A stretch of DNA of 64,000 nucleotides from a virus. Where the stretch lies: positions 32,001 to 96,000 of the IMG/VR virus record IMGVR_UViG_3300045988_115450; one strand, written 5' to 3'. This document shows, piece by piece, positions 4,420-21,100 of this stretch. A model generated the notes under the pieces. The model was not told where the DNA came from and made no database searches. It saw only the letters and a list, made by a program, of their open reading frames with translations. The translations under genes and the position numbers were made by a program. Numbering within the stretch: position 1 is the stretch's first letter; every line of letters starts with the position of its first letter.

Positions 4420-5628
4420 TTATTCGCTTGCCTTGAAATTGTATACAGGCTTGATGATGTTCGCGACCTCTACGGTGTCCGCAATATTGGCAATGATTTC
4501 CTCCATCGTCTTGTAAGCCATCGGACTTTCATCAATGGTGGAACGGCTGACAGATGTGGTGAAGATACCCTTCATGGAATCCTCATACTCCTCGAGAGAA
4601 ACCAGCTCTTTCGCCTTACTGCGGCTCATTACTCGACCAGCACCATGAGGAGCTGAACAGTTCCAATCATCATTACCCTTGCCGATACCGATGATACAAC
4701 CATCACGCATATTGATAGGAATGAGGAGCTTTTCACCAGCTTTCGCAGAGATAGCCCCCTTGCGAACCATATTCGTTCCAAACTCAATGTAGTTGTGAAC
4801 GGTCTCGAACATCGGCAAATCCCAGTAGGCGATGTCACTTCCGAACAAACTGCTGACGATTCGATTTGCGATTTCATATCGGTTGGTTGCCGCAAAATGC
4901 TGACACGCTTTCATGTCGTGAAGATAATCTTCCCGGTGCTTTCCTGTGAGGTAGCACAGTTCCTTCGGAATCCCGAGAGGGTTCGGAGAGAACTTTCTAT
5001 GAAGCTCGGCAATCGCTTTCTGAATTTCCTTTTTGCGCCCCTGCGCCTTGTAATCAACAATCAGTTTCTCTTGTATAGCAATGAGTTCGTCCTTACCTTG
5101 CATAGTCTCAACGGCAAGGTTCTGATAGTATTCGGCAACCTGTTTTCCCAAATTGCGGCTACCAGTATGAATCACAAGGTATTTTACCCCTTCGGAATCA
5201 GTATCAATCTCGATGAAATGGTTTCCACCCCCGAGAGAACCGATGGAGCGAACCAGTCGTTCCGGGCCTTTGAGTGCCTTATAGCACCGAATATATTCAA
5301 TTACCTCGGTAGGGTAGATAGCCGTCTCGTTTACTTCACGACCACTTGGGACGTTCTCCCGGATAGCCTTGTCGAGATAATCGAAGTCAATGTCAATCTT
5401 ACCCAGTTCCACGGTCAGCATACCGCAACCAATGTCAACGCCAACGATGTTCGGAATGACCTTATCCCCCAAATCAGCCGTAAAGCCAACGACACAACCA
5501 GCCCCAGCATGAACATCGGGCATGATACGAACCTTGCAATCTGCGAAAGCTGGTTGTTTGACAAGGGTATAAATCTGATTCAGAGCCGTAGGCTCGATGT
5601 TATCAGTAAAAATCTTTAAGTCGCTCAT
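4420..5628 (-). CDS. rtcB: RtcB-family RNA 3'-phosphate ligase
   Basis: RtcB signatures: GGGNHFIE, HTGSRNLG, APHGAGR, MPDVHAGAG. Start set at MSDLKIF, which overlaps the upstream stop as TAATG. The track alternative is 5667. Confidence 0.9.
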   Translation of the reverse strand: MSDLKIFTDNIEPTALNQIYTLVKQPAFADCKVRIMPDVHAGAGCVVGFTADLGDKVIPNIVGVDIGCGMLTVELGKIDIDFDYLDKAIRENVPSGREVNETAIYPTEVIEYIRCYKALKGPERLVRSIGSLGGGNHFIEIDTDSEGVKYLVIHTGSRNLGKQVAEYYQNLAVETMQGKDELIAIQEKLIVDYKAQGRKKEIQKAIAELHRKFSPNPLGIPKELCYLTGKHREDYLHDMKACQHFAATNRYEIANRIVSSLFGSDIAYWDLPMFETVHNYIEFGTNMVRKGAISAKAGEKLLIPINMRDGCIIGIGKGNDDWNCSAPHGAGRVMSRSKAKELVSLEEYEDSMKGIFTTSVSRSTIDESPMAYKTMEEIIANIADTVEVANIIKPVYNFKASE

Positions 5629-6005
5629 TACACCACCATCACAATCCATGTTAAAATAATCTGACAAATATGAACCAGCTGATCCTGAACCAGGTTGATT
5701 TTCTTAAAGTTCGCCTTCAAGTCGTCAACACAGAAGTGAATAACGCAGTTCACTACCAGCATAACAAAAAACAGGACCGGTAGGTTGAGCTTCAGATAAA
5801 CCGCCACCGGCAGCATCGTCATGAACGTCCAGCTAGAAGCGTGCATAAACAGTGCTGCAAGATAGTCGTGCCTGTACTTCTCTCCAGGAGAGTTCTTTCT
5901 CCACCAATCCTTCTGCTTCATACTGGCAAGCACACCCTGCAGGTAATAATCATCCACGATGTGAGCAAACAGCATCACCAATAACACAAATAGCTTAGTC
6001 TGCAT
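5628..6005 (-). CDS. small multi-pass membrane protein (DUF3307-like)
   Basis: Four hydrophobic segments; HIVDDYYLQ motif near the N-terminus. Confidence 0.6.
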   Translation of the reverse strand: MQTKLFVLLVMLFAHIVDDYYLQGVLASMKQKDWWRKNSPGEKYRHDYLAALFMHASSWTFMTMLPVAVYLKLNLPVLFFVMLVVNCVIHFCVDDLKANFKKINLVQDQLVHICQIILTWIVMVV

Positions 6006-9162: not shown

Positions 9163-9402
9163 TTACTCATTACCCTTCTTGTCTTTCTGCTCGCCGCCAT
9201 TTTCCTTCACACAAATCGGAAGCCGCCGAACATGGTAGTCCTTTCTTTCTCTTACCACGTTATACTTCTCACAGGTGTGTGTCGGGTATGGATGAGTCCC
9301 AGGGAGTCCGTACATGGCAGCGAGAGAGCTAGAGATACCAGCTCTGTACTTAGAGAATCTACACTCATTACACAATACTGTTTTAGTTTTCATATATGAC
9401 AC
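9163..9402 (-). CDS. Cys/His-rich hypothetical protein (79 aa) immediately downstream of the RT
   Basis: CNEC...HTCEKY...C; 8-nt gap after the RT stop. Confidence 0.55.
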   Translation of the reverse strand: MSYMKTKTVLCNECRFSKYRAGISSSLAAMYGLPGTHPYPTHTCEKYNVVRERKDYHVRRLPICVKENGGEQKDKKGNE

Positions 9403-9410
9403 CTCGTCCT

Positions 9411-10577
9411 TTAGTTTTTGAGATCCTTCTTCATCGTGGCTTCAATATCAAAGCCAAACTTCTGACTATAGCGAGTGATAACTCCATCAATACTTCCTCT
9501 GTTAACCATTCGATAGTAGCTCATAAGACCGAGCACATATTGCAGTTGCTCAAGAGGCCAATAAGTTCCGCTCTTTCTGTCCTTCGCGTAATTGAAAAGC
9601 ATCGCCTCGAAGTTGCGCTTCTTCTTATACCCAATCGTGATCTGGTTGTCCTTGTTGATCATCACACCGAGTACCCAATTCTTATGATACGAGGGGCCGT
9701 AATGAGTTTTCTCATCTTTGATGAGATAACTGGCCCCGAAAAGTCTAAACAGATTTTCAATCTTTCTGATAATGAAGCTCTTATCAAACTCAATACCACA
9801 GCTGATGTTCATATCATCAGCATATCTGGTATACGCGAACCTTCTACCCTTTTCATCAGGGTTGTTTTCCGGGTTCTGCAGGCTACGCAGAAACTTACTG
9901 AACTCAAAATCAAACGGAATCATAATCAGATTGGTCAGCATCGGGCTGATCGGCGTTCCCATAGGTAGACCTCCATCCAGGAAGCAAAGCGACAGAGCTT
10001 TTCTAAGCTCTTCTCTCCCGCTTTTGCACTCCATAATGAGACAGAACGGGTAAATCATAGACAGCGCGTTCCATACAAACTCCGGAGTGGTATTAGGAAA
10101 GAAACCGCTGATGTCAGTCTTTAAATACCACTTGCTCTTATTCCACTGATGGACTTTTGCGGCGTCTACACTACTTCTGTTTTTGACATAAGCGTATGCA
10201 GCGGCATGGCTGCTCGCATAAAACTCAGATTCTAACAGCAGTTTTAGCTCTCGCAGACAATTCATCAGTTCGTCGTCCGGCGCGTTAATCTCTCTCATGC
10301 CGCCGCTCTTTTTCGGGATAAAAAACTTATGGTAATGTGTATGAAGATCGCTTTCAAGCAGTTCCTGATGCTTTTTGTTAAATGCTCTCAGTAGTTCAAT
10401 CTTTTTCCCCGTGTCAAACCCTGCCAGGATTCTCTCGGGCAGTCTCTCATATGCAACTGTTCTAGTATATAGAGATCTCGATTCCCTCACATGTTTATCT
10501 TGAAGCAGCGCAGACATAATATCCTCTAAAGAAATCTGCTTATACGGCTCTGTAATTCTTGCTGTTACATAAATCAT
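9411..10577 (-). CDS. reverse transcriptase, retron-like (388 aa, RT domain only)
   Basis: FFIPKKSGGMREINAP (RT1); SSVDAAKVH; LKTDISGFFPN (RT3); LPMGTPISPMLTNL (RT4); YTRYADDMNIS (RT5, YADD); NWVLGVMIN at the position of the retron VTG block. No accessory domains. Confidence 0.85.
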   Translation of the reverse strand: MIYVTARITEPYKQISLEDIMSALLQDKHVRESRSLYTRTVAYERLPERILAGFDTGKKIELLRAFNKKHQELLESDLHTHYHKFFIPKKSGGMREINAPDDELMNCLRELKLLLESEFYASSHAAAYAYVKNRSSVDAAKVHQWNKSKWYLKTDISGFFPNTTPEFVWNALSMIYPFCLIMECKSGREELRKALSLCFLDGGLPMGTPISPMLTNLIMIPFDFEFSKFLRSLQNPENNPDEKGRRFAYTRYADDMNISCGIEFDKSFIIRKIENLFRLFGASYLIKDEKTHYGPSYHKNWVLGVMINKDNQITIGYKKKRNFEAMLFNYAKDRKSGTYWPLEQLQYVLGLMSYYRMVNRGSIDGVITRYSQKFGFDIEATMKKDLKN

Positions 10578-10593
10578 ATTATTCTCCTTGCTT

Positions 10594-10937
10594 TTATCTG
10601 AAACTATATATGGATTTGGATGTCAGTACGAGATGCTCATCGCGGAGCTTGTCGTCGTCTGAGACGGTGAAATCCCTGACTTGGCGTTTATTGTTTGCCG
10701 GATACCCCTGCTGGTGGCGGATGTTGACCCTGTCGAACGAATATCCTTCTGGTTTTTCCTGTTGTTCGGGCGCTGCTTCTCATCAGAGAAGATGCCACCG
10801 GGGTGTTAAGCCTTCTTGGAGGGCACCAAGCATTGGTCTGCTATCGCACGCAGCGGGGTTCCTCTTTCGGACGATGTGCCACTCTTCCGTTCCGGTAAGA
10901 GTTTCTATTTTTTTAAATAGAAAGTGCTTTCAGATAT
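10594..10937 (-). ncRNA. IR-bracketed structured RNA gene, copy A (candidate retron msr-msd)
   Basis: No minus-strand ORF. The 9-bp inverted repeat TATCTGAAA (10595-10603) / TTTCAGATA (10928-10936) brackets it. In RNA sense the 5' arm is followed by G and then the hairpin TTTCTATTT-AAAAAA-ATAGAAA. The core 10604-10901 is homologous to 16549-16848. The element ends 17 nt before the RT ATG. Confidence 0.55.
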
Positions 10938-11037
10938 TTAGATTGAATTGGTTGTTAGCAGGCGTGCCATTCCCCTGCATCTCTTTAGCCATTAAGGCGC
11001 GTGGCGACACGAAATTTCCACCTCAAACAACCAATAT

Positions 11038-11706
11038 TTAATATGCTTCCATAGTAAAATCAAAGGCGTCGATCAAAACTATCTTCTTGATCGAACGCCC
11101 ATTCACAAAATTCATGAAGTTTGCTACTGCACAAGAGCAAATCATCCGCACAGAAGGAGCGATACTAAGCTCCAGGTTACATGCAGATCGAGGAGTTTCA
11201 GCCAGAGCTTCCTCTTGAGTAAACTGCATGGAGTTAATCAGATTTTCAACCATCGCACTAGAACTCCAGTCAGCCGCAAAGTGTTGCGCGTCCGTCAGCC
11301 GAAGTCTGGTATCAAACACAGCTTTGATATACGGGTTTCTAGCATTTTCTTCGCAAATTTTTCTGCGGAGATCAATGTTGTCCACCATAAGGAAGACATA
11401 GCCGGACAGACGCTGGTTGGTATACCCCTCCTGAACTACTTCAATACCATTTGCATCAGGATTGATACTCAACATCATATCTTTCACGGCTTCAGCTTTA
11501 TTTCTACCGATGTCGCTATCATTGAACATCTGATTCGCGATATTGTGCGACTCAACCTTGTCAAAATCGTACAGAGTGACCTTCTCAAGCCCAGCTCTTG
11601 CCAACAATTCGGCTACAGTGGAACCGGACGCACCACAACCGATGATATGTACTCTTTCTTTAACCTTCGTGGGATTAAAGAACTCAATACTCTTCGATAA
11701 ATTCAT
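11038..11706 (-). CDS. ThiF/MoeB-type E1-like adenylyltransferase (222 aa, minimal)
   Basis: Rossmann loop IIGCGASGSTVAELLARAGL; then LYDFDKVESHNIANQ (DxD...N..Q, with the usual Arg replaced) and LMVDNIDLRR. Confidence 0.8.
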   Translation of the reverse strand: MNLSKSIEFFNPTKVKERVHIIGCGASGSTVAELLARAGLEKVTLYDFDKVESHNIANQMFNDSDIGRNKAEAVKDMMLSINPDANGIEVVQEGYTNQRLSGYVFLMVDNIDLRRKICEENARNPYIKAVFDTRLRLTDAQHFAADWSSSAMVENLINSMQFTQEEALAETPRSACNLELSIAPSVRMICSCAVANFMNFVNGRSIKKIVLIDAFDFTMEAY

Positions 11707-11718
11707 CTTTATACCTCC

Positions 11719-11997
11719 TTATAGCATTAAACAATTCAAAAATACATCACTATCGACTTTACTTTCAATCGGCTCAAACATCCAAGAAGCCCAAGCAACA
11801 AATCTTAATTTGCCTCTTTCTTCAATGCAAATACGTTCAACTTGAATGCCGTTAATCAAGGATGTCAATGAGCGCACTGTTATGATCTTACCGCAATAGC
11901 GCGTTTTATCCCCTTCAAATATCCCGTGATCATTTTTAGAAAGAATCGCCGTTCCACTACCTGTATCTACGGAAAACAGATCAGGGTCAGACATCAT
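11719..11997 (-). CDS. NCLLL-tail family protein 5 (92 aa; tail ...FLNCLML)
   Basis: Shares only the C-terminal tail with the four upstream genes. A 16-codon out-of-frame remnant of the family N-terminus lies just upstream. Confidence 0.6.
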   Translation of the reverse strand: MMSDPDLFSVDTGSGTAILSKNDHGIFEGDKTRYCGKIITVRSLTSLINGIQVERICIEERGKLRFVAWASWMFEPIESKVDSDVFLNCLML

Positions 11998-12061
11998 GTC
12001 TTCCTAACTCCTCACCCTGACCTTCTGCCCAACATACATATCTTCAAGTTTCATACGTCAC

Positions 12062-12394
12062 CTACAACAACAAACAGTTCATAAAAACCTGCTCATCAAT
12101 AGATTGCTTTAACCGCAACACACTTTTATAGAAAGACATCTCTTTTTTGCTAACCCTTACCCTGTACCAACCGCCAAGTTCATACTCAACGATCTCGCCG
12201 CCGTCTCTTATAAACTCTCTGAGGCAAGGATCGCCCTCCGCGTACATCACATCGTCGGCGTATATAAATCTTTCGTTTGTGATGATGTCTACGCTCTGCG
12301 ACACAGCCCCATTCGGAAATACCGCCCGTAAGTTATCATTAAATTCATCCCACGTTTTTGGAATAAACTCAACCCGCTGCCCAGGTCTAAACAT
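12062..12394 (-). CDS. NCLLL-tail family protein 4 (110 aa; tail ...VFMNCLLL)
   Basis: Paralog of 12404..12745 and 12753..13082 (MFxxGQ[KR]V...WDEF...GWY.V...); conserved C-terminus. Confidence 0.7.
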   Translation of the reverse strand: MFRPGQRVEFIPKTWDEFNDNLRAVFPNGAVSQSVDIITNERFIYADDVMYAEGDPCLREFIRDGGEIVEYELGGWYRVRVSKKEMSFYKSVLRLKQSIDEQVFMNCLLL

Positions 12395-12403
12395 TATATC
12401 ACC

Positions 12404-12745
12404 TCACAATAATAAGCAATTTATGAACAATTTTTCATCAATTGACCTCATGTCTTCTTTCAGACACAACACGCTTTCGTGAAATTTCAGTTTTACTCCA
12501 TTTATATTCACCATATACCAACCAGTAGCATAGTACTTGATAATCTCACCTCCATTTATTAGAAGCTCGTTAAACCAAGAATCGCCTTCCCCATAAAGCA
12601 CCCCTGCAACCAATATCATTTCTCTATGAGTAGTTGAGAATTCATCTAATATCATATCTCTCGCAAACAACTCCATTAAAGCATCCCGAAATTCATCCCA
12701 TGACTTTGGGGCAAGCGTAACTTTCTGTCCAAGTTCAAACATCAT
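12404..12745 (-). CDS. NCLLL-tail family protein 3 (113 aa; tail ...LFINCLLL)
   Basis: Paralog set; conserved C-terminus. Confidence 0.7.
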   Translation of the reverse strand: MMFELGQKVTLAPKSWDEFRDALMELFARDMILDEFSTTHREMILVAGVLYGEGDSWFNELLINGGEIIKYYATGWYMVNINGVKLKFHESVLCLKEDMRSIDEKLFINCLLL

Positions 12746-12752
12746 ATTACCT

Positions 12753-13082
12753 CTATAGCAGCAAACAATTCATAAGTACCTCTTCGTCAACATATGCTTC
12801 TTCCATCGACCGTAGCATCGTCTCATAGAACCACGCTCTTTCTCCGCCAAAGTCTACAATGTACCAACCACACTCGAAGTCTAATTCAATCACGCCACTC
12901 ATCCTGCGTAACTTATAAAAATCGGGAGCGCTATATCCTGCTGCACTAGCTGCAAGATACCCAGTGGTATCACAGCTCGTAAACCTTTTTGCGCTGCGAG
13001 GAAGATGCTTTAGGTAAGCGCTGCAAAACTCATCCCAGCTCCTCAATGCTATCCTGACTCGTTGTCCGATCTCGAACATCAT
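12753..13082 (-). CDS. NCLLL-tail family protein 2 (109 aa; tail ...VLMNCLLL)
   Basis: Track ORF is 12753..13133. Trimmed to MMFEIGQRV... behind AGAGGAG. Confidence 0.7.
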   Translation of the reverse strand: MMFEIGQRVRIALRSWDEFCSAYLKHLPRSAKRFTSCDTTGYLAASAAGYSAPDFYKLRRMSGVIELDFECGWYIVDFGGERAWFYETMLRSMEEAYVDEEVLMNCLLL

Positions 13083-13092
13083 ATCAACTCCT

Positions 13093-13437
13093 CTATAACA
13101 GCAGGCAATCCATAAGTGTCTTTTCGTCAACACTTTTTTCTTTTAATTGACACGGCGCTGTTTCGCCCGGCCCACCCACCAAACACTCATCTCTTACTTC
13201 GCCAAAGTCAACGCGCCAAATCCAATAGTCATCCGGTTCCAGATAAATTGTCGCTCCGTATTTATCTGGAGCATTAAAATTGTCACCTTCAATCATTTCG
13301 CATCCATCATCGACGCATTCTTGAAACACTGAATGAAACCTACGTTTCACGTGTTCCACCGCACTCTCCAAATTCCAATAAACACCGGATAAATCAATAC
13401 CCTGGTCTGTTTCTGTTATCACACAATATACCTTCAT
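13093..13437 (-). CDS. NCLLL-tail family protein 1 (114 aa; tail ...TLMDCLLL)
   Basis: Track ORF is 13093..13542. Trimmed to MKVYCVITE... behind AAAGGAG. The N-domain is unrelated but the C-terminal tail is the same. Confidence 0.65.
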   Translation of the reverse strand: MKVYCVITETDQGIDLSGVYWNLESAVEHVKRRFHSVFQECVDDGCEMIEGDNFNAPDKYGATIYLEPDDYWIWRVDFGEVRDECLVGGPGETAPCQLKEKSVDEKTLMDCLLL

Positions 13438-13611
13438 ACCGGTCTTCTCCTTTCTTATGTACCTCTGAACAGCTAACCAGCTGTTTAAGTTCAAAAGTTT
13501 TCTGCTCTGGGAGTAGGAAAACTTTTGAAGCGACACAGCCATTTGTTACTCCCTCGTTCCGACAAGAGTGATATGTAATTTAACATATCTGTACAGGCAC
13601 ATATGTTTTTT

Positions 13612-14298
13612 TTACTTAATTAACATCTTACCGTCACGCCAATCGGGCCGCTCATCAATAATTTTATCTGCGTCCTCCATGAATTCTTCAAGCTCAACCG
13701 CGGCGTTCATAATCCACTCGATGCCATCCTGTACATCACGCACGTCCACCTTCTCAAACCGGTCAATGTTATCGAAAAACCATCTGCACAAATCATATAC
13801 AGCGGGGTTCCATCGTTCCACTGCGAGTTCCACATTGTCGCTTTCGTATAGGATGCCTTCTCTAACATCATAAACCTGTGAAGATATGTAGCCTTTCTTA
13901 TTGAAAATCTGAAAGACGTAGAAATCATCAACGTCTGTCAGCAAATCTGCTCTATACTTTATATCCGTAGAAGATGGACTGACACCCATGTTCACATGAG
14001 AATGCCCGTACAACCGAACCTTATTGAATATCTCCGTGTTAAGAGAATCCTGCCAGTTCACATAGTCCGCATCTTCAGGTTCGGTGCTTGCCGACGTGAC
14101 CTTCTGAGGGAATACCAAGACGTCCTCCACGATAAACTCAGCTGGATTTTCCAACCTTCTTACAACTCCGTGCCATCCAACCTCCAGATTCCTATTCATA
14201 ACAAGCAAACACGTCTTCATCCATGCCTTCTTACTGTATACGATTTTGCACGGATTTGTCGCGGCCAACAAATCCGTTGCATTAGTTGCCTTATTCAT
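13612..14298 (-). CDS. JAB/MPN (JAMM) metallopeptidase (228 aa)
   Basis: Complete JAMM signature: upstream Glu (LEVGWHG) plus HSHVNMGVSPSSTD (HxHx7SxxD). Confidence 0.8.
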   Translation of the reverse strand: MNKATNATDLLAATNPCKIVYSKKAWMKTCLLVMNRNLEVGWHGVVRRLENPAEFIVEDVLVFPQKVTSASTEPEDADYVNWQDSLNTEIFNKVRLYGHSHVNMGVSPSSTDIKYRADLLTDVDDFYVFQIFNKKGYISSQVYDVREGILYESDNVELAVERWNPAVYDLCRWFFDNIDRFEKVDVRDVQDGIEWIMNAAVELEEFMEDADKIIDERPDWRDGKMLIK

Positions 14299-15706
14299 TG
14301 CTCTTATTCTCCTTTATCCATTTAATTGCGTCGATGTAATTAACTACTCGCCCATCCGGCAACTCCAATACTACAGCGCCTTTTCTCAACAACTCTTCAA
14401 GGAATGATCTCAATACGACAGTATCACTAAGATTCAGATTCCCGCTTTCGGCGCACGTCGTGTCTACCGTATAAACGTAGTCACATTTGTCGCAAGATTT
14501 CTCTAGCGCCTGTTGCCAGCTCCCCATGCAACCATATTTATCAAGGTGTGTGTTGGGGAGATAGCTGTTGTATTCACAGCCATACCCATATGCCTTGATG
14601 GGTAGTACCATTCCTCCGAAAGAAAGTCTCCATGCGGAACACATTCTTACTTTGATATTAGAGTCAATGAAAATCCCTGTCATTAACTTTTTAGTATCAC
14701 TTTCTGTCAGGCCCACATACGAAGACCGCGTATAAAAAATCGACGACCGATTGTTGATGTACTCTCTCGCAATCTCTGGATCAAACAGTGTCATATAACC
14801 AGTTACAACATATACGATATTCCCATCTTTGTCACCGCTCTCAACGGACACATTTTTGTTCGACAAAAAATAATCCATTAACTCGTTCTTGCTTTCAACA
14901 TTACTGTTGTCAATTGCTTCCACCAACAAAGACCAACCTTCGTATTCTCTATACCAATCTCTCAAATCGGACATCAATTTATTGATCTGACTTCTTGCAC
15001 TCTCCATCTTCTTTGCGTATCTTTCCCTCTGTACGTTCCTTAGCTTTCCCTCATAGCCATAAAGGTAATATCTCTTTTTAGCTGAGGCCACGTCCACAGC
15101 AGCGGCAACCATATCGTTCATCGCTTTACAGATTACACTCATGCCGGAGTCTTCTTTAGACAGAATCTTAATAAACTTTGACTCCGCTTCAGTCCTGTCT
15201 TTAATGTACCATGGGCAGAATACATTGAAAAGACACACTAGGTAATGCCACGAGCCATAGTTATCCACGTTGGTAAGGACAACCGTACTCTTCCTCTCTT
15301 CATTACTGAAAATTCTCAGTATGATACCGAGTCGTTCTTTCATTAGATTCAGCTCTCTTGCCGTCTTCTCTTTCCAACTGCTCGCACATTTCATATTACT
15401 GACTAAAGTTTCTACGGCCTTAACCTTATCACACACGCAAAATGTAATCGTGTTGTCTTGAGAAGTTACCTCCGAAAAACGCTCTTTGTCTTTTATCCAC
15501 GTAATCCAATCAGCACAATTAGGATCTACCACTCTAACCATGATACGCACGTCCGCCGGAACTCTTGGCTTCAAAAACAACCGAGCCATTGCCAACGCAA
15601 AGTCATCGCCTTTGAACGTCCCGTCACCAGCAATATTAGAAAACTCAGACTCCAGCTCTGGGGCCAGCACTAAAACTTCACTGCGTTTCAAACAATTTGA
15701 AAACAT
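14291..15706 (-). CDS. hypothetical 471-aa protein with a Cys-rich C-terminal domain
   Basis: Track ORF is 14291..15772. Trimmed to MFSNCLKR... behind AAAGGAG. The C-terminal LPNTHLDKYGCMGSW loosely resembles an E2 HPN...C motif. Overlaps the JAB gene start by 8 nt. Confidence 0.65.
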   Translation of the reverse strand: MFSNCLKRSEVLVLAPELESEFSNIAGDGTFKGDDFALAMARLFLKPRVPADVRIMVRVVDPNCADWITWIKDKERFSEVTSQDNTITFCVCDKVKAVETLVSNMKCASSWKEKTARELNLMKERLGIILRIFSNEERKSTVVLTNVDNYGSWHYLVCLFNVFCPWYIKDRTEAESKFIKILSKEDSGMSVICKAMNDMVAAAVDVASAKKRYYLYGYEGKLRNVQRERYAKKMESARSQINKLMSDLRDWYREYEGWSLLVEAIDNSNVESKNELMDYFLSNKNVSVESGDKDGNIVYVVTGYMTLFDPEIAREYINNRSSIFYTRSSYVGLTESDTKKLMTGIFIDSNIKVRMCSAWRLSFGGMVLPIKAYGYGCEYNSYLPNTHLDKYGCMGSWQQALEKSCDKCDYVYTVDTTCAESGNLNLSDTVVLRSFLEELLRKGAVVLELPDGRVVNYIDAIKWIKENKSNE

Positions 15707-15788
15707 ATATCTTCTCCTTTCTTTATGAACTCTTGGCAGGCCATCCGACGTAACCGAATGCCCTCCCAGCAACTCACTGTGTTATGTA

Positions 15789-15814
15789 CGAGGCCGGACA
15801 ATGTCCGGCCTCGT
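15789..15814 (-). promoter_or_regulatory. 11-bp GC-rich stem-loop between the 79-aa gene and the 471-aa gene
   Basis: CGAGGCCGGAC-aatg-GTCCGGCCTCG; no U-tract, so a possible attenuator or processing site. Confidence 0.4.
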
Positions 15815-15832
15815 AGATTGTGCTAACTCAAA

Positions 15833-16072
15833 TCAGATCGCGTTACCTTGCGCCTTAACAATAGCACTCAGAGTACAAATACCAGCGGCACCAAGTTCGG
15901 CAAAAGTGCAATCCATATCATCAGGCGTCAGAATCGTGCCGGAAAGAGAATTGACGCTACGGCTGCACTCAATTCCGATCTTCTCGAACAGAGAACGAGG
16001 GGTCTCTACATGTTCATCTACGGCCTGGCTATCAAAACGGCGGGTGGTACTTCTAACATTCACAATAATCAT
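15833..16072 (-). CDS. small ubiquitin-like candidate (79 aa; Gly76 followed by NAI)
   Basis: MIIVNVRS... beta-strand start as in ThiS/MoaD; ends ...AIVKAQG-NAI. Size and context (E1 plus JAB) are the basis, not homology. Confidence 0.5.
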   Translation of the reverse strand: MIIVNVRSTTRRFDSQAVDEHVETPRSLFEKIGIECSRSVNSLSGTILTPDDMDCTFAELGAAGICTLSAIVKAQGNAI

Positions 16073-16113
16073 AATATACTTCCTTTCTGTTATTACATCT
16101 ATGCTTATTTGTT

Positions 16114-16503
16114 TTAGCCAGCTACTACGATCTTGGAACTGACCCGTGCCATCATAACGTCGATCTCTTCCAGCGCTTCGCGCACCTGGGCTTCAATCTT
16201 TTCTACCTTCTCGATAACAGAAGCATATCTCTCGGCAACAACCTCACGTACGGAACGGTCAGCTTCGGTAATAAGACTCACAGTTACGACCGCACGACCA
16301 GAGCCATCACAAGACTCAGCCTCATAGATAATACCGGTCGGTGCTACTACGCCTCTCTCGCCAGCGAGAGTGTAAAACAGTGCGTTGCCATCTTCGTCCA
16401 GCAGTTGCACAGACTTAGGCCGGTACAGAGCTGCGCGATTGATTTCTTCAAGAGTGAAAGCACTCTTGAGTGTTACTGCGTTACCACACACAATAATTTC
16501 CAT
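16114..16503 (-). CDS. hypothetical protein (129 aa) ending ...KIVVAG
   Basis: MEIIVCGNAVTLKSAFTLEEI resembles the ThiS/MoaD N-terminus; C-terminal Gly; first gene after ncRNA copy B. Confidence 0.55.
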   Translation of the reverse strand: MEIIVCGNAVTLKSAFTLEEINRAALYRPKSVQLLDEDGNALFYTLAGERGVVAPTGIIYEAESCDGSGRAVVTVSLITEADRSVREVVAERYASVIEKVEKIEAQVREALEEIDVMMARVSSKIVVAG

Positions 16504-16536
16504 ATTCTTCTCCTTTTCATATGTCTAATTATGTAT

Positions 16537-16883
16537 TATAAAGTGATTCTATATATGGAATGATAGACCTAACCCGTGCGTTAGTACGCTGACGGGCTTG
16601 GTTATCTGAGGTACTGTGTGATCGACGTCGCTCCAACTCCGCATCGCTTTGGCGTTTGATGCCTTACGCTGTAACGGTGGTAGGCAAGTTGTGCGGCTTT
16701 CTTTATATGCTTCGCTTAGTAATCTTAGCCTTCTTGTCGCATCCATGACGCCGAGAGGTTTCTGGTCGAGAGCCATCGAGGTTGGTGCAACCTTTGCGAT
16801 GCTTCCCACACCTTCGGACGATATGTTACTCTCCCATTCTGGCAAGAGCCTCTGTGAATTTCAGAGTTTGCAATCACTTTATA
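16537..16883 (-). ncRNA. IR-bracketed structured RNA gene, copy B (paralog of 10594..10937)
   Basis: A 12-bp perfect inverted repeat, TATAAAGTGATT (16537-16548) / AATCACTTTATA (16872-16883), brackets it. In RNA sense the 5' arm is followed by G and then the hairpin CTCTG-aaattca-CAGAG. The core 16549-16848 shares CTATATATGGA, TTGGCGTTT, AGCCTTCTTG and TTCGGACGATxTGxxACTCTxCC with copy A, at similar offsets. Confidence 0.55.
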
Positions 16884-16944
16884 AATACATTTCTAATACG
16901 GTTAAAAAAATCAGATAAAAGAATTATTTGGACTAAATGCTCAC

Positions 16945-17799
16945 TTAGTTTTCCTGCTGTCCACTCCAAACAACCAGACAATCAGGATTGGGGACACCTC
17001 TGGTTTCCTTACCATCTAGCCATCTAGCCAGTACATAAGAGGTCGTCAAGAACACACGGTGGCGGTAATGCTTGCACCGGCCATCAATAGCAGAATCCTT
17101 AATCCAATCTCTCAAGCGGACAATCTGCCTATCCAAACTAGACTCAGCATAACCAGTCTGAAGAACATTCCAGAAATATTCGAGCCTAACATCGCTCGCC
17201 CCGGCTTCTTTCGCCAGATACATGGCAGCTGTGATCGGAGCCGTGCCAAGCTTTCTCTGTCTCACCTTCAAGAAACTATTAACCCAGGAGAATTCAGCGA
17301 TGTGCTTCGAAATCATGTCCGCTCTCTTAGCTTCATTCTCCAAGTGCCTCGCACTAAATTCATTCAGCACCATGCAGATTGCAACCGAGCGCTTGTAAGA
17401 AGAAATCTTTCCTCTGTTTCCGCCCTCGGCCATACACAAAGCGTCGGCTTCACTTCTCGCCCTACCCCGGTCAATGTACGGACTGCGTTCCATATTGAAC
17501 AGGAAGAACATCTTTACTGTCTTACCGCAGCGCTTCACCGCTTCGAGCCGGTGATGCCCGTCAATAAGAACACCAGCCTTATCAAACATAATAAAGCCGG
17601 TCGGAGTATTTTCATCCCATGTGCCATTCATCATATGGGACTTGTACTTATTCACAGTGCTCTTACTGATCGGACGATTGCCGCCGGACATAGCCAACAA
17701 ACCCGTCGCCATTTCCGGAGACACGTAAGCATACGCCAACTGTCCACCGTTCCGTTCTTCTAGCAACAAGTTGCTCAACAATTCTTCATAAGCTGTCAT
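16945..17799 (-). CDS. ParB/Srx-fold nuclease-like protein (284 aa)
   Basis: VLIDGHHRLEAV (the ParB N-terminal domain DGxHR motif). Track ORF is 16945..17859. Trimmed to MTAYEELL... behind AGGAGG, because the long form would run into the tRNA. Confidence 0.7.
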   Translation of the reverse strand: MTAYEELLSNLLLEERNGGQLAYAYVSPEMATGLLAMSGGNRPISKSTVNKYKSHMMNGTWDENTPTGFIMFDKAGVLIDGHHRLEAVKRCGKTVKMFFLFNMERSPYIDRGRARSEADALCMAEGGNRGKISSYKRSVAICMVLNEFSARHLENEAKRADMISKHIAEFSWVNSFLKVRQRKLGTAPITAAMYLAKEAGASDVRLEYFWNVLQTGYAESSLDRQIVRLRDWIKDSAIDGRCKHYRHRVFLTTSYVLARWLDGKETRGVPNPDCLVVWSGQQEN

Positions 17800-17825
17800 T
17801 TGTATGTACCTCCTAAAAATTTTGC

Positions 17826-17902
17826 TGGTGGTTCCTGCCCGGCTCGAACGGGCGACCATCCAGTTATGAGCTGGACGCGCTAACCAACTGCGCTAAGGAA
17901 CC
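17826..17902 (-). tRNA. trnM-CAU: tRNA-Met or Ile2 (anticodon CAU), 77 nt, CCA encoded
   Basis: Reverse complement folds as GGTTCCT-TA-GCGC-AGTTGGTTA-GCGC-G-TCCAG-CTCATAA-CTGGA-TGGTC-GCCCG-TTCGAGC-CGGGC-AGGAACC-A-CCA. Confidence 0.9.
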
Positions 17903-17978
17903 AGGTACGTTTAAAGCCGCTGAATTTATCAGCGGCTTTAAACTGTTAATGAAAGCAAGTGTCCGTATAAAACGAACG

Positions 17979-18053
17979 TGGCAGCGCCGGACTGAGATCG
18001 AACAGTCTTCCACGGAGTCAAAGTCCGTTGCATTACCGTTATGCTACGGCGCT
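17979..18053 (-). tRNA. trnQ-UUG: tRNA-Gln (UUG), 75 nt, CCA encoded
   Basis: AGCGCCG-TA-GCAT-AACGGTA-ATGC-A-ACGGA-CTTTGAC-TCCGT-GGAA-GACTG-TTCGATC-CAGTC-CGGCGCT-G-CCA. Confidence 0.85.
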
Positions 18054-18164
18054 ATATAAATCAAGCAGAGCAGAGCAGAGTTTAAAGCCATTCCAGGCTA
18101 TGTAAAGAAAGGAGGTGGTTTATCAACAATAACAGGTAGGAGAATCATTTTCTGTTGCTTGATA

Positions 18165-18239
18165 TGGGGTAGGCGACGAGTGCCGATCTCGCGTTTCCGG
18201 TTTGGAAGACCGGTGTTCTAGCCGTTGAACTACGCCTAC
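18165..18239 (-). tRNA. trnG-UCC: tRNA-Gly (UCC), 75 nt, CCA encoded
   Basis: GTAGGCG/CGCCTAC acceptor stem; CCGGT-CTTCCAA-ACCGG anticodon arm; unusual T-loop ATCGGCA. Confidence 0.8.
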
Positions 18240-18269
18240 ATTTTTGCGGTTCCGCAAACCGCATTTTTT

Positions 18270-18899
18270 TTAATTCATATATAAATCATAATAACTTTGT
18301 TTTCTTCTTGGTTTCAAATCTGGATTTTTTAAACGCCTTTTGATGAACTCAACTGTATTATCCAGCCCATAGTTCCTGACGTATGTATTGATCCTGTTTG
18401 CTCCCAAACCTAAAGTTTTAGCCCAGTCCTTCCCAGTATGTATCGTTCCGTCAACATCAATAAGCGAAGTTGTAGACTTGTATTTCGAATTATCTGCCAA
18501 TGTTACCCATCTGCAATTATCAGGAGAATAATCCCCGTCCCAATCAATTCTATCAATAGTCAAACCATCATCGTACCCGTTAGTTAATGACCAACTCTCA
18601 AATAATTCTGGATTGCGCATCCAATCATCACAAACCTTAACACCCTTAGCGCCATACCATCTGTAGCTCTTATTACTCTTATCATAGCACCTAGCTTTCA
18701 TATCGCTAAAAATTCTCCGGAGCTTGTCGTCACTCCATGAAGCATCATAATTTATATAACCCCCGCTTCTTCCGATATGTCTACAAGCTTTCGCCTGCTC
18801 AATATGCCTTTTCTGTTTGTTCGTTTCAAACCCACACTCAGCACATCTCACATGGTATAATCTATGCCCGTCCCTATGCCTGAAATCACACTCATACAA
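18270..18899 (-). CDS. HNH_3-like homing endonuclease with C-terminal HTH (209 aa)
   Basis: N-terminal CAEC...C..H zinc finger. TIDRIDWDGDYSPDNCRWVTLADNSK resembles DHIDG...NLRWVT..EN, but the first His is Arg. C-terminal WAKTLGLGANRINTYVRNYG. Confidence 0.6.
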   Translation of the reverse strand: MYECDFRHRDGHRLYHVRCAECGFETNKQKRHIEQAKACRHIGRSGGYINYDASWSDDKLRRIFSDMKARCYDKSNKSYRWYGAKGVKVCDDWMRNPELFESWSLTNGYDDGLTIDRIDWDGDYSPDNCRWVTLADNSKYKSTTSLIDVDGTIHTGKDWAKTLGLGANRINTYVRNYGLDNTVEFIKRRLKNPDLKPRRKQSYYDLYMN

Positions 18900-19047
18900 G
18901 ACATCGAAAATACCTATCCTAGTACCAACAATATTCTCTTTTTCCAGAATATCACCATCTTTCTGCGTGTTGCTAAATAATAATCCGATGAGAGTGCTGC
19001 CCTCTCGCCTGCGTTGTTCACTGTACTACTGTTATACTAATCGGATG

Positions 19048-19128
19048 TACGGGCGACAAGATTTGAACTTGCAAGCCTTACGGCACCGGGGCCTAAACCC
19101 GGCGTGTATACCGTTCCACCACGCCCGC
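19048..19128 (-). tRNA. trnL-UAG: tRNA-Leu (UAG), type II, ~81 nt, no encoded CCA
   Basis: GCGGGCG acceptor stem; CCGGG-TTTAGGC-CCCGG anticodon arm; long variable arm; T-arm GCAAG-TTCAAAT-CTTGT. Confidence 0.8.
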
Positions 19129-19210
19129 ATGGCACCACTAAGTCATGGTCGGCTGCGCATTTATCCTTTTTTGAATCGTGGTAGATGATTTTGCTTCGTA
19201 CAACCACGCA

Positions 19211-19285
19211 TGGACTGAGTGGAGAATTTTGAAATCTCGACCTCTGGTTCCCAAAACCAGCGTTCTGCCTCTGAACTACACCCAG
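19211..19285 (-). tRNA. trnP-UGG: tRNA-Pro (UGG), 75 nt, CCA encoded
   Basis: CTGGT-TTTGGGA-ACCAG anticodon arm; T-arm GAGAT-TTCAAAA-TTCTC. Confidence 0.8.
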
Positions 19286-19288
19286 ATA

Positions 19289-19363
19289 TGGAGGCCGATG
19301 CGAGTTCGAACTCAGCGTCTGTGGGTTACAAAGCCACTGTTTTACCACTTAAACTAATCGGCC
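19289..19363 (-). tRNA. trnT-UGU: tRNA-Thr (UGU), 75 nt, CCA encoded
   Basis: GGCCGAT/ATCGGCC acceptor stem; anticodon loop TTTGTAA with a C31-C39 mismatch; T-loop TTCGAAC. Confidence 0.75.
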
Positions 19364-19513
19364 ACGCACCCCGTTTTGCGGGGTGGCTATGTAAGGGAAT
19401 CAAAAAGGGGAACTCCTGTCTCTTCCAGGATGCCAACACACTACTACGGACTGCCAGAGGCAAACCGCCACTTTTCAGGTGTCATAGTCCGCAAACTATG
19501 GGCTTTTCTTTAG

Positions 19514-19595
19514 TGCGGGATAAGAGACTTGAACTCTTACGTCTATCGACATCGAGACTTAAACACGAGGTGTCTACCGATTCCACCAATCCCGC
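19514..19595 (-). tRNA. trnL-UAA: tRNA-Leu (UAA), type II, ~82 nt, no encoded CCA
   Basis: GCGGGAT/ATCCCGC acceptor stem; loop TTTAAGT; long variable arm TGTCGATAGACGT; T-arm AAGAG-TTCAAGT-CTCTT. Confidence 0.8.
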
Positions 19596-19602
19596 ATATT
19601 GA

Positions 19603-19940
19603 ACTTGCTACAACCCAGCCTGGTGGTTGACCCGTGGGCGTTGATAACTGACCCAAACCATTAACCCAGGATTTTGTAAAACTTTAACCGTTAACCTTTG
19701 ATTCTTGAACTTTAATCTTCTGAAGATCTTTGAGCCTTGAATTTTGAAATTTTAACTTTGAAGTTTGAGCTTTACAGCAACATTTCTTCTATAAGAAATT
19801 AGATTAACAGTCCAATCTTTTTGTAAGCGCAAAATTTCAAGTTTTGCTTTGTAGTTGGCACATATTTGTTCATTTTTACATCGAACCAAGTGCCGTCAGC
19901 ACGATGGGTTACCGTTTTAGGTTTTCGGGTTGCAGCAAGT
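19603..19940 (-). other. IR-bracketed ~340-bp ORF-free element with short-period repeats
   Basis: ACTTGCTACAACCC (19603-19616) versus GGGTTGCAGCAAGT (19927-19940), matching at 13/14. Interior has AACTTTAA / CTTTGA / GGTTAAYGGTT repeats and several local hairpins. Confidence 0.4.
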
Positions 19941-19948
19941 TGCTTATT

Positions 19949-20602
19949 TTAGTATTCTACGGTGATTGTAGTGGTCGCATTGGACACAGATAGCTGAGAA
20001 TCTACATCCGCAGTAAACGTGTCAATCCAATCGCTCAAAACCTTGATTTCATTACCAATGTCAAGCGGATCAACGAGTTCATACGTATTGTTGGCAATAT
20101 ACTCTTCTCTCAACCGCTTAACGACCTCAGAATCCTTGGTTGTCTTGGCCTCTTTAGGCTGGCACTGGAGGAAATTCATGATATACTGTTCAGCTTTCGC
20201 TTCAATCCACTCGCCTTCATGTTTGGAAACCTCAGCACGGGCTCTTTCGTACTGCCGGACCATTACATCAAGCAAATCTTTCTTAGCCATGATTCCATGG
20301 CTTTTCATTTCGATGGCTTCGGCTACGGTGTAAGGTTCGCCGCCAATTACCACCGGGGTTTTGGCATTGGAGAGCACAACTGCTCTCTTAATAGCCGTCC
20401 GACGAGCAATCAAGTCCGTAACAGACTGATAATCAGACTTCATATCCTTCTTGAGGGTTTCGACCAGCACACCGCCGATCTTTTTGTCGCTCACTTTCTT
20501 ACTGGCAACGAAGGTTTTACCAGAAGTAGCATTGAAAATTCTAGCGTCCAAAATTTTCAGCTCTGCAAGAGCTTTATGGACGGTCATAGTTTCTTTGTTC
20601 AT
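19949..20602 (-). CDS. hypothetical protein (217 aa) embedded in the tRNA island
   Basis: ORF track; plus-strand ORFs 20019..20333 and 20219..20635 are shadows. Confidence 0.65.
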   Translation of the reverse strand: MNKETMTVHKALAELKILDARIFNATSGKTFVASKKVSDKKIGGVLVETLKKDMKSDYQSVTDLIARRTAIKRAVVLSNAKTPVVIGGEPYTVAEAIEMKSHGIMAKKDLLDVMVRQYERARAEVSKHEGEWIEAKAEQYIMNFLQCQPKEAKTTKDSEVVKRLREEYIANNTYELVDPLDIGNEIKVLSDWIDTFTADVDSQLSVSNATTTITVEY

Positions 20603-20653
20603 ATTAGTTCCTCACTTTCTTATTTATGGAATTAGATTTTTATCGTGGTATCG

Positions 20654-20744
20654 TGGTCTCCCTGGGTGAATTCGAATCACCATATACCTTATGAGGGCCT
20701 TCCAATTATAAGTTGGAAGCTATAACCAATTTAGCTACAGGGAG
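20654..20744 (-). tRNA. atypical 91-nt tRNA, anticodon UAU, long variable region, CCA encoded
   Basis: CTCCCTG-TA-GCTA-AATTGGTTA-TAGC-T-TCCAA-CTTATAA-TTGGA-(19-nt variable AGGCCCTCATAAGGTATAT)-GGTGA-TTCGAAT-TCACC-CAGGGAG-A-CCA. Confidence 0.65.
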
Positions 20745-21024
20745 ATATTTGTTCAGCAACCACAACCGCCCTATCAATCAGTCGGCCTAACCAAAAGATA
20801 GGGCTGGATTGTGTTGCCCAACCGTGCCTGAGAGCTTTCTTGCCTAGCCTGTACTTAACCAGGTGTCTGCAATCAATGTTTAGGTTGCTGGTTTTGACCC
20901 TCGCTCTAGAACCAGTTAACTAGAGCGATTGAGAGCTACTAGACGGAATTGCACCGCCTTGAAGTCATAAGTGAGGCGCGAGAGGAGTTACGCCCACCTC
21001 TTCACCTGCTTGGAGTAGCATATG

Positions 21025-21100
21025 TGGCACCAGCACTAAGATTCGAACTTAGAACTACGGTTTTGGAGACCGCCGTTTTTCCACTTAAAACTATGCTGGT
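21025..21100 (-). tRNA. trnW-CCA: tRNA-Trp (CCA), 76 nt, CCA encoded
   Basis: ACCAGCA-TA-GTTT-AAGTGGAA-AAAC-G-GCGGT-CTCCAAA-ACCGT-AGTT-CTAAG-TTCGAAT-CTTAG-TGCTGGT-G-CCA. Confidence 0.9.

Follow-up and report, generated by a model that had tools for sequence, protein, structure and literature searches.

Why would a bacteriophage carry, on one strand and within a few kilobases, an enzyme of the ThiF/E1 type and a JAMM peptidase, and on what might the two act? The question is raised by a 64,000-nucleotide stretch of viral DNA (hereafter the window; bases 32001-96000 of IMG/VR record IMGVR_UViG_3300045988_115450), in which all positions below are counted. The source record is a complete virus genome of 107,581 bp with direct terminal repeats. 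The genes most likely belong to a phage ubiquitin-like activation and conjugation module: we put the probability at roughly 70% that the E1 and the peptidase (JAB) are the two enzymes of a phage-encoded ubiquitin-like protein (Ubl) module whose modifier is p79, a small protein encoded nearby. The proteins concerned, in the order of their transcription, are:

16114-16503, minus strand: p129, a conserved partner protein that is fused to the C-terminus of the putative Ubl in some lineages
15833-16072, minus strand: p79, candidate ubiquitin-like modifier of 79 amino acids, two genes upstream of JAB, with the C-terminus ...VKAQGNAI
14291-15706, minus strand: p493, a conserved multidomain protein of 471 amino acids if its conserved Met is taken as the start (open frame from 15772 onward)
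13612-14298, minus strand: JAB, a JAMM/MPN+ metallopeptidase of 228 amino acids
11038-11706, minus strand: E1, a minimal single-domain ThiF/E1-type adenylation enzyme of 222 amino acids with an invariant Cys176

An initial annotation of the locus had described the E1 as a minimal ThiF-type enzyme with no E2 or rhodanese fusion, and both points are borne out. Pfam ThiF (PF00899) matches residues 17-218 at 85.2 bits (cut-off 28.1; profile positions 21-223 of 238), a whole-genome Pfam scan returns the same ThiF assignment, and the Pfam scan found no second domain. The characteristic motifs also lie where they had been placed (GCGASGS at residues 23-29, DFD at 47-49, NIANQ at 55-59 and VDN at 108-110). 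Across 27 aligned homologues (49-95% identity), the invariant positions are G23-C-G25-x-x-G28-S, D47, D49, N55, N58, Q59, K70, D109, R114 and C176, and the nucleotide-binding set of G23, G25, G28, D47, K70, D109 and R114 is complete in all of them. We take the roles of these residues to be those of MoeB and ThiF, with the GxGxxG motif, the ribose Asp (D47), the Lys (K70), the Mg-binding Asp (D109) and the Arg of DNxxxR (R114). C176 sits in the motif SAC[NG]xxL[SG]V, past the end of the alignments with Protein Data Bank (PDB) structures; going by sequence context, it is presumably the counterpart of the Cys that follows the crossover loop (C184 of ThiF, C250 of UBA5).

A non-adenylating Rossmann family had been named as the assignment that would overturn this description, and profile comparison placed the protein in ThiF/E1 instead. 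The family profile matches solved structures of UBA5, Uba1, UBA6, MccB, TcdA, MoeB, ThiF, Cap2, PaaA and BubCD, in alignments that span only the N-terminal 70-110 residues, and in the alignment with UBA5 Asn58 falls opposite the canonical Arg. From these matches and this alignment we conclude that we are dealing with a true, if divergent, E1 domain of the adenylation type and not with some other Rossmann enzyme.

The neighboring 228-amino-acid protein matched no Pfam, NCBIfam, PHROG or PADLOC model as a single sequence. Its family profile, in turn, matched Rpn11 (E 9e-4), and five family members gave weak Pfam Prok-JAB matches. Residues E39, H99-S-H101, S109 and D112 constitute an exact E...HxHx7SxxD motif that is invariant in 27 homologues, and this agrees with the initial annotation, according to which every JAMM metal ligand is kept. 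An AlphaFold2 (AF2) model of the protein (predicted local distance difference test score, pLDDT, 87; predicted template modeling score, pTM, 0.83) gave Rpn11, CSN5, BRCC36, PfJAMM1 and AMSH as its best Foldseek matches, with E-values down to 5e-8 and a probability of 1.0; the 50 top PDB matches are all MPN-domain proteins, comprising JAMM peptidases and MPN partners. By motif and model, this is a JAMM/MPN+ peptidase with all catalytic residues kept and a predicted MPN fold.

What, then, would the two enzymes process? It had been stated that the phage lacks a Gly-Gly modifier between them. This is correct for the space between JAB and E1, but a candidate modifier does exist at 15833-16072, namely p79. 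A database search returned 102 members of the p79 family, none of them annotated, and the related loci described below contributed 83 distinct copies. About 60 of the 102 terminate exactly at ...VVKADNA, while a subset ends in ...K[GSA][DE]GG followed by VM, CC, RC, YC, IR, RK or YLF, that is, in diglycine plus a short propeptide. What follows this boundary in the 83 locus copies is either nothing, or 1-4 residues (mostly with Ala first), or a whole p129 domain of 126-131 amino acids, the last in 11 copies. The fusion junction reads ...KADNA and then A-x-[IV]-x-[IV]-x-G, entering p129 at its residue 2; stand-alone p129 begins M-A-K-I-x-I-x-G. Because the junction matches the ends of the separate proteins, a cut at the boundary would yield the same p79 and p129 that are encoded separately elsewhere. 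Judged on these sequences, the C-terminus of p79 varies in the manner of a ubiquitin-like protein that is made as a precursor and cut to length by a peptidase. The copy in the window consists of the boundary plus one or two extra residues, and its alignment with a close relative (L003, ...KADSA-AI) suggests that the boundary in this phage falls between QGN and AI; the alternative is between QGNA and I.

The p79 profile, searched against PDB, placed the UBL domain of ubiquilin-1 on top (E 0.19), followed by those of Dsk2 (E 0.69) and hPLIC-2 (E 1.7), with in-register alignments that span the full length, and hhalign aligned p79 with ubiquitin in register too (E 0.11); none of these values is significant. 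Weak Pfam matches were to TUG-UBL1, SAMP2 and DUF2604. There was no PHROG or PADLOC match and nothing significant in Pfam or NCBIfam. Taken with its C-terminus, p79 appears to be the best candidate for the modifier.

The conservation of the locus was assessed by searching with the E1, which gave 34 loci in IMG/VR and 78 further loci in genomes of GTDB. The latter are mostly contigs of about 100 kb binned with gut metagenome-assembled genomes, chiefly of Clostridia (Oscillospiraceae, Lachnospiraceae, Christensenellaceae), with some labeled as Bacteroidales or other groups. For counts of synteny we used one hidden Markov model (HMM) per cassette protein and scored the upstream genes only in loci with more than 5 kb 5' of the E1 (n = 81). 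JAB, p493 and p129 are present in 81 of these 81 loci and p79 in 79, all on the same strand. A reverse transcriptase (RT) of the retron type was found in 83 of the 86 loci having enough downstream sequence, and at least five of the six genes (p129, Ubl, p493, JAB, E1, RT) occur in each related locus with enough flank. JAB and E1 overlap or are separated by at most 50 nt in 71 of 97 related loci; in the window, the stop of the p493 gene overlaps the start of the JAB gene. The conserved unit is p129, Ubl, p493, JAB, E1, structured RNA and the retron-type RT, the last two of which correspond here to:

16537-16883, minus strand: candidate retron-like structured RNA, upstream copy, which aligns with 10595-10935
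10595-10935, minus strand: candidate retron-like structured RNA, second copy, between E1 and RT
9411-10577, minus strand: retron-type reverse transcriptase, Pfam RVT_1

In the direction of transcription, the window has a ParB-like open reading frame (ORF), 347 nt of non-coding sequence, p129, p79, p493, JAB, five small paralogous genes, E1, a further 341 non-coding nt and the RT. Thousands of uncultured phages carry the cassette, whose genes and gene order stay constant across a very large gut phage family. A PADLOC scan of the cassette proteins gave matches for only two of them, the E1 (to the E1 part of Cap2 models, at up to 60 bits) and the RT (to retron RT models). Full-text literature searches found no E1/JAB/Ubl cassette described in phages, nor one tied to a retron. 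The cassette is widespread and strictly conserved, and as far as these searches reach it is apparently undescribed.

The five small genes between JAB and E1 had been proposed as natural partners of the two enzymes. They are:

13093-13542, minus strand: tail-tagged paralogue 1 (...MDCLLL), start probably at 13437
12753-13082, minus strand: tail-tagged paralogue 2 (...MNCLLL)
12404-12745, minus strand: tail-tagged paralogue 3 (...INCLLL)
12062-12394, minus strand: tail-tagged paralogue 4 (...MNCLLL)
11719-12054, minus strand: tail-tagged paralogue 5 (...LNCLML), with an in-frame TAG at 12004-12006

All five are paralogues with the common tail ...[VI]DE+x[FL][MIL][ND]CL[LM]L, and none ends in Gly-Gly; the [ND]CL[LM]L tail occurs in no further ORF of the window. 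On the proposal that these proteins are the substrates, JAB would trim their tails and the E1 would adenylate their C-termini, much as Cap2 acts on CD-NTases (cGAS/DncV-like nucleotidyltransferases) or MccB on peptides. The placement of the array exactly between JAB and E1 speaks for it, as do the strict conservation of the tails inside the family and the presence, in one other locus (L081), of an unrelated array with I[DN]xxEFI tails in the same gap. We nevertheless consider it improbable. JAB and E1 abut in the 71 of 97 loci counted above, and a phmmer search of the 34 viral loci found the genes only in the three closest relatives, L001-L003; among 5.8 billion proteins the family amounts to 5 clusters, in all of which [NS]CLLL is kept. 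Arrays with other tails lie outside the cassette in other phages, and across lineages the tails change while the E1 proteins share 49-62% identity and an invariant active site. Phages that are nearly identical differ in the number of copies (2 to 5), and one of the copies appears to be decaying: in paralogue 5 the TAG at 12004-12006 replaces a conserved Trp codon (the L003 orthologue has Trp), and in L002 and L003 a +1 frameshift within a T-run has apparently cost this paralogue its tail. The E1 also lacks an N-terminal peptide-clamp domain of the MccB/PaaA type. Its ThiF domain starts at residue 17 of 222, and MccB was matched through the adenylation core only. The genes are a lineage-specific accessory insertion and not the modifier, and the view of them as natural partners falls with their restriction to one narrow lineage.

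We favor p79 over the tail-tagged proteins as the substrate of E1 and JAB for three reasons: the tails vary by lineage, in contrast to the constant active sites of E1 and JAB and the constant C-terminus of p79; in most phages JAB and E1 have no gene between them; and the tails end in bulky hydrophobic residues.

Tail-tagged arrays are themselves more widespread. In the window and in ten or so other loci (L015, L030, L026, L013, L023, L081, L083, L094/95, L100), many small proteins of one phage, often without homology to one another, end in a common tail specific to the lineage, the other tails being LE[ED][IV]L, [VL]DDLI, SISNLI, NELLDLLS, CxCESLL and I[DN]xxEFI. An HMM search for homologues of the NCLLL proteins among these other arrays found none, even at E up to 10. 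In other lineages the arrays are usually outside the cassette, on either side of it, and between JAB and E1 only in L081. The lineage-specific tail resembles a short, transferable motif for docking or sorting at the C-terminus.

A second proposal compared the locus to the PRTRC (ParB-related, ThiF-related) modules of mobile elements. The gene content is superficially alike, with a ThiF-like gene, a small protein and, 3 kb off, a ParB-like protein with a DGHHR motif. The ParB-like ORF (16945-17799) exists and carries the motif. However, it is present in 3 of the 34 viral loci (phmmer), all of them the near-identical relatives L001-L003, and its protein matched no ParB model in Pfam, NCBIfam or PDB; it can hardly be part of the system, as had been supposed. 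Of the NCBIfam PRTRC models, only PRTRC_ThiF gave a match, far under threshold (35.4 bits against a cut-off of 144.75), and no other matched the tested cassette proteins or the ParB-like protein. On these three grounds we reject the PRTRC reading, which we regard as very improbable.

If p79 is the modifier, the pathway may proceed as follows. The protein would be produced with a short C-terminal extension or, in other lineages, as a p129 fusion. The JAMM peptidase would cleave at the ...K-x-[DQS]-[NG]-[AG] boundary, which in this phage would mean after ...QGN or ...QGNA, and the exposed p79 carboxylate would then be adenylated by the E1 with ATP. From there the Ubl would probably be transferred to the invariant Cys176 of the E1 and passed onward to a target or partner, with p493 (through its invariant His and Cys residues) and p129 as candidate transfer or recognition components, or as substrate. 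JAB could also undo the conjugation.

Both partner proteins were considered for the role of an E2. The p493 family comprises 2,547 clusters at 50% identity (E 1e-3 or better), and 149 diverse members without exception keep H154, W166, H387 and C393. In the motif P384-N385-x-H387-x5-C393-[LM]-G, the spacing from Asn to Cys is that of the E2 motif HPN...C, and hhalign pairs the two motifs. As a protein with the UBC fold, p493 was nonetheless rejected: hhalign against UBE2D2 gave a probability below 1%, and neither the PDB profile search nor Foldseek returned an E2. Its AF2 model (pLDDT 88) matched no solved fold in a Foldseek search of PDB, and weak matches to Csm6 and small alarmone synthetases (probability at most 0.2) were set aside; the sole BFVD match is an uncharacterized protein of a gut siphovirus. 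p129 might be thought an E2 by analogy with BubB, but it has no conserved Cys or His and no PDB or Pfam match, and this candidate too was rejected. In L008-L010 (4519-5193) and L019 (3619-4341), p129 genes appear to have about 90-100 extra N-terminal residues, unrelated to p79, which may be an artifact of the choice of the first start codon.

Several points weigh against a p79-based module. The likeness of p79 to Ubl domains is not statistically significant, and we infer its beta-grasp fold from sequence. The tails of most family members are Asn-Ala rather than Gly-Gly, and we know of no E1 that uses an Asn-Ala tail. The E1 itself lacks the conserved Arg of NxxRQ, as the initial annotation had noticed: it is replaced by Asn58 in N55-I-A-N58-Q59, invariantly across the family, so adenylation may follow a different chemistry. 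The searches of the cassette also revealed no E2, p493 resembling one at the level of the motif only.

A different use of the same three proteins would be a sulfur-carrier pathway of the ThiS/ThiF, MoaD/MoeB, QbsCDE or CysO/Mec+ type, in which p79, once adenylated by the E1, would become a thiocarboxylate that gives sulfur to a small molecule or to a nucleic acid (for example tRNA or retron DNA) and JAB would only mature the carrier. The E1 is indeed a minimal single-domain ThiF-type protein that NCBIfam matches best to ThiF and MoeB models, the phage has an RtcB gene and nine tRNA genes nearby, and two JAMM peptidases, QbsD and Mec+, act in the processing of sulfur carriers. All of the NCBIfam scores are far under their cut-offs, however, and the searches of the cassette turned up neither a rhodanese nor a cysteine desulfurase nor a PP-loop sulfurtransferase. 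Known sulfur carriers end in Gly-Gly, in contrast to the Asn-Ala of most p79 proteins. We judge this pathway unlikely and retain activation and conjugation of p79 as the preferred reading.

How does a p79 module compare with known systems? By analogy, the closest in logic are type I Bub operons and the E2-less trios of archaeal SAMP and bacterial sulfur-carrier systems. Type I Bub (6E.1) operons encode BubAB (a Ubl-E2 fusion), BubCD (a JAB-E1 fusion) and BubE, and the JAB of BubCD cleaves the BubAB fusion after the terminal Gly of the Ubl (PMC11601596). The p79-p129 fusion boundary parallels this cleavage. Both systems pair a minimal, homodimer-type E1 adenylation domain with a JAB peptidase, in both the Ubl (a putative one in the cassette) can be an N-terminal fusion to the next protein, to be freed at a conserved boundary, and in both JAB and E1 are directly adjacent. 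Unlike Bub, the cassette has JAB and E1 as separate proteins, its E1 has the invariant C176 where BubCD has none, and its putative Ubl mostly ends in Asn-Ala, not Gly. Further, the fusion partner p129 has no detectable E2 likeness, a DUF6527 protease is missing, the cassette has p493 and a retron-type RT in addition, and the location is a phage rather than a bacterial defense island.

The E2-less trios (SAMP/UbaA/JAMM1, QbsCDE and CysO/Mec+) likewise combine a small beta-grasp protein, a fold that we infer for p79, with a ThiF-type E1 and a JAMM peptidase, and archaeal PfJAMM1 is among the best fold matches of the JAB model. QbsE has a C-terminal extension that is removed by its peptidase. The modifiers of these trios are cellular and end in Gly-Gly, whereas the cassette has p129, p493 and a retron RT as partners.

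Bil operons (BilABCD) likewise bring a JAB and an E1 together with a Ubl (a putative one in the cassette), and phage-host conflict is the setting of both systems, but the cassette E1 has only 222 amino acids and no E2 was found with it. The likeness to type II CBASS (cyclic oligonucleotide-based antiphage signaling system) that had been suggested is partial: the best matches of the E1 in the defense library are indeed to the E1 part of Cap2, and a JAB enzyme stands alongside as Cap3 does, but there is no E2-E1 fusion, no CD-NTase was found in the cassette, and JAB was unmatched by PADLOC models. Among phages, the only earlier Ubl-JAB pairing found in our literature searches is that of the tail-assembly genes of lambdoid and T1-like phages, a Ubl (TAPI) and a JAB-NlpC/P60 protein (TAPK) (Iyer et al., 2006; PMC1779556). 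That pair is located among tail genes and comes without an E1, and its JAB is part of a fusion with NlpC/P60, in contrast to a cassette with an E1 in the non-structural arm. The cassette is set apart from all of these systems by its modifier tail, the missing Arg and retained Cys of its E1, its two partner proteins, its phage location and its retron neighbor.

The RT scores 139 bits with the PADLOC model RT_II-A and 163 bits with NCBIfam retron_St85_RT, under the cut-off of 235. In the alignment of 10595-10935 with 16537-16883, the ends are conserved and the interior is divergent, and the pair brackets the block from p129 to E1. The constant linkage of the RT makes a functional connection to the Ubl module plausible, and any coupling of the module to the RT and the RNAs is hypothetical. 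Going further, one may tentatively picture a phage-borne retron that has several template RNAs and a protein arm of Ubl, E1, JAB, p493 and p129; single-stranded DNA from the RT would control, or itself be joined to, a Ubl conjugation that the phage uses in infection. We hold this to be possible but doubtful. If true, it would define a new class of retron with protein tagging as its effector pathway, and the first case of a bacterial virus that has an E1-dependent Ubl pathway among its core functions.

Bacterial ubiquitin-like conjugation as described so far (Bil, Bub, CBASS Cap2/Cap3) serves host defense against phages, whereas here the whole enzyme set is in a phage. The mostly Asn-Ala modifier, the E1 without the canonical Arg, the p493 and p129 families and the constant retron-type RT neighbor provide material for tests. 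The identity of the target would reveal what a phage gains from protein tagging, and whether retron DNA and tagging are coupled.

Some lineages have a further component. In about a dozen of them (loci L016, L019, L027, L058, L072, L075-L078, L080, L088, L094, L095 and L098), an extra conserved gene of 150-200 codons lies between JAB and E1 and its product begins MTREEFxxxVxxWxDLxxFC; the window does not have it.

Megablast of positions 9400-18000 against the INPHARED phages gave no match. Minus-strand genes fill the window from about 1 to 33 kb and include many small ORFs as well as the RtcB and tRNA genes, and the plus strand beyond about 33 kb has large ORFs, with one open frame of more than 2,075 amino acids. 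The RtcB RNA ligase gene is at 4420-5667, and the nine tRNA genes (Met, Gln, Gly, two Leu, Pro, Thr, Ile-UAU and Trp) are at 17826-21100, just upstream of the cassette.

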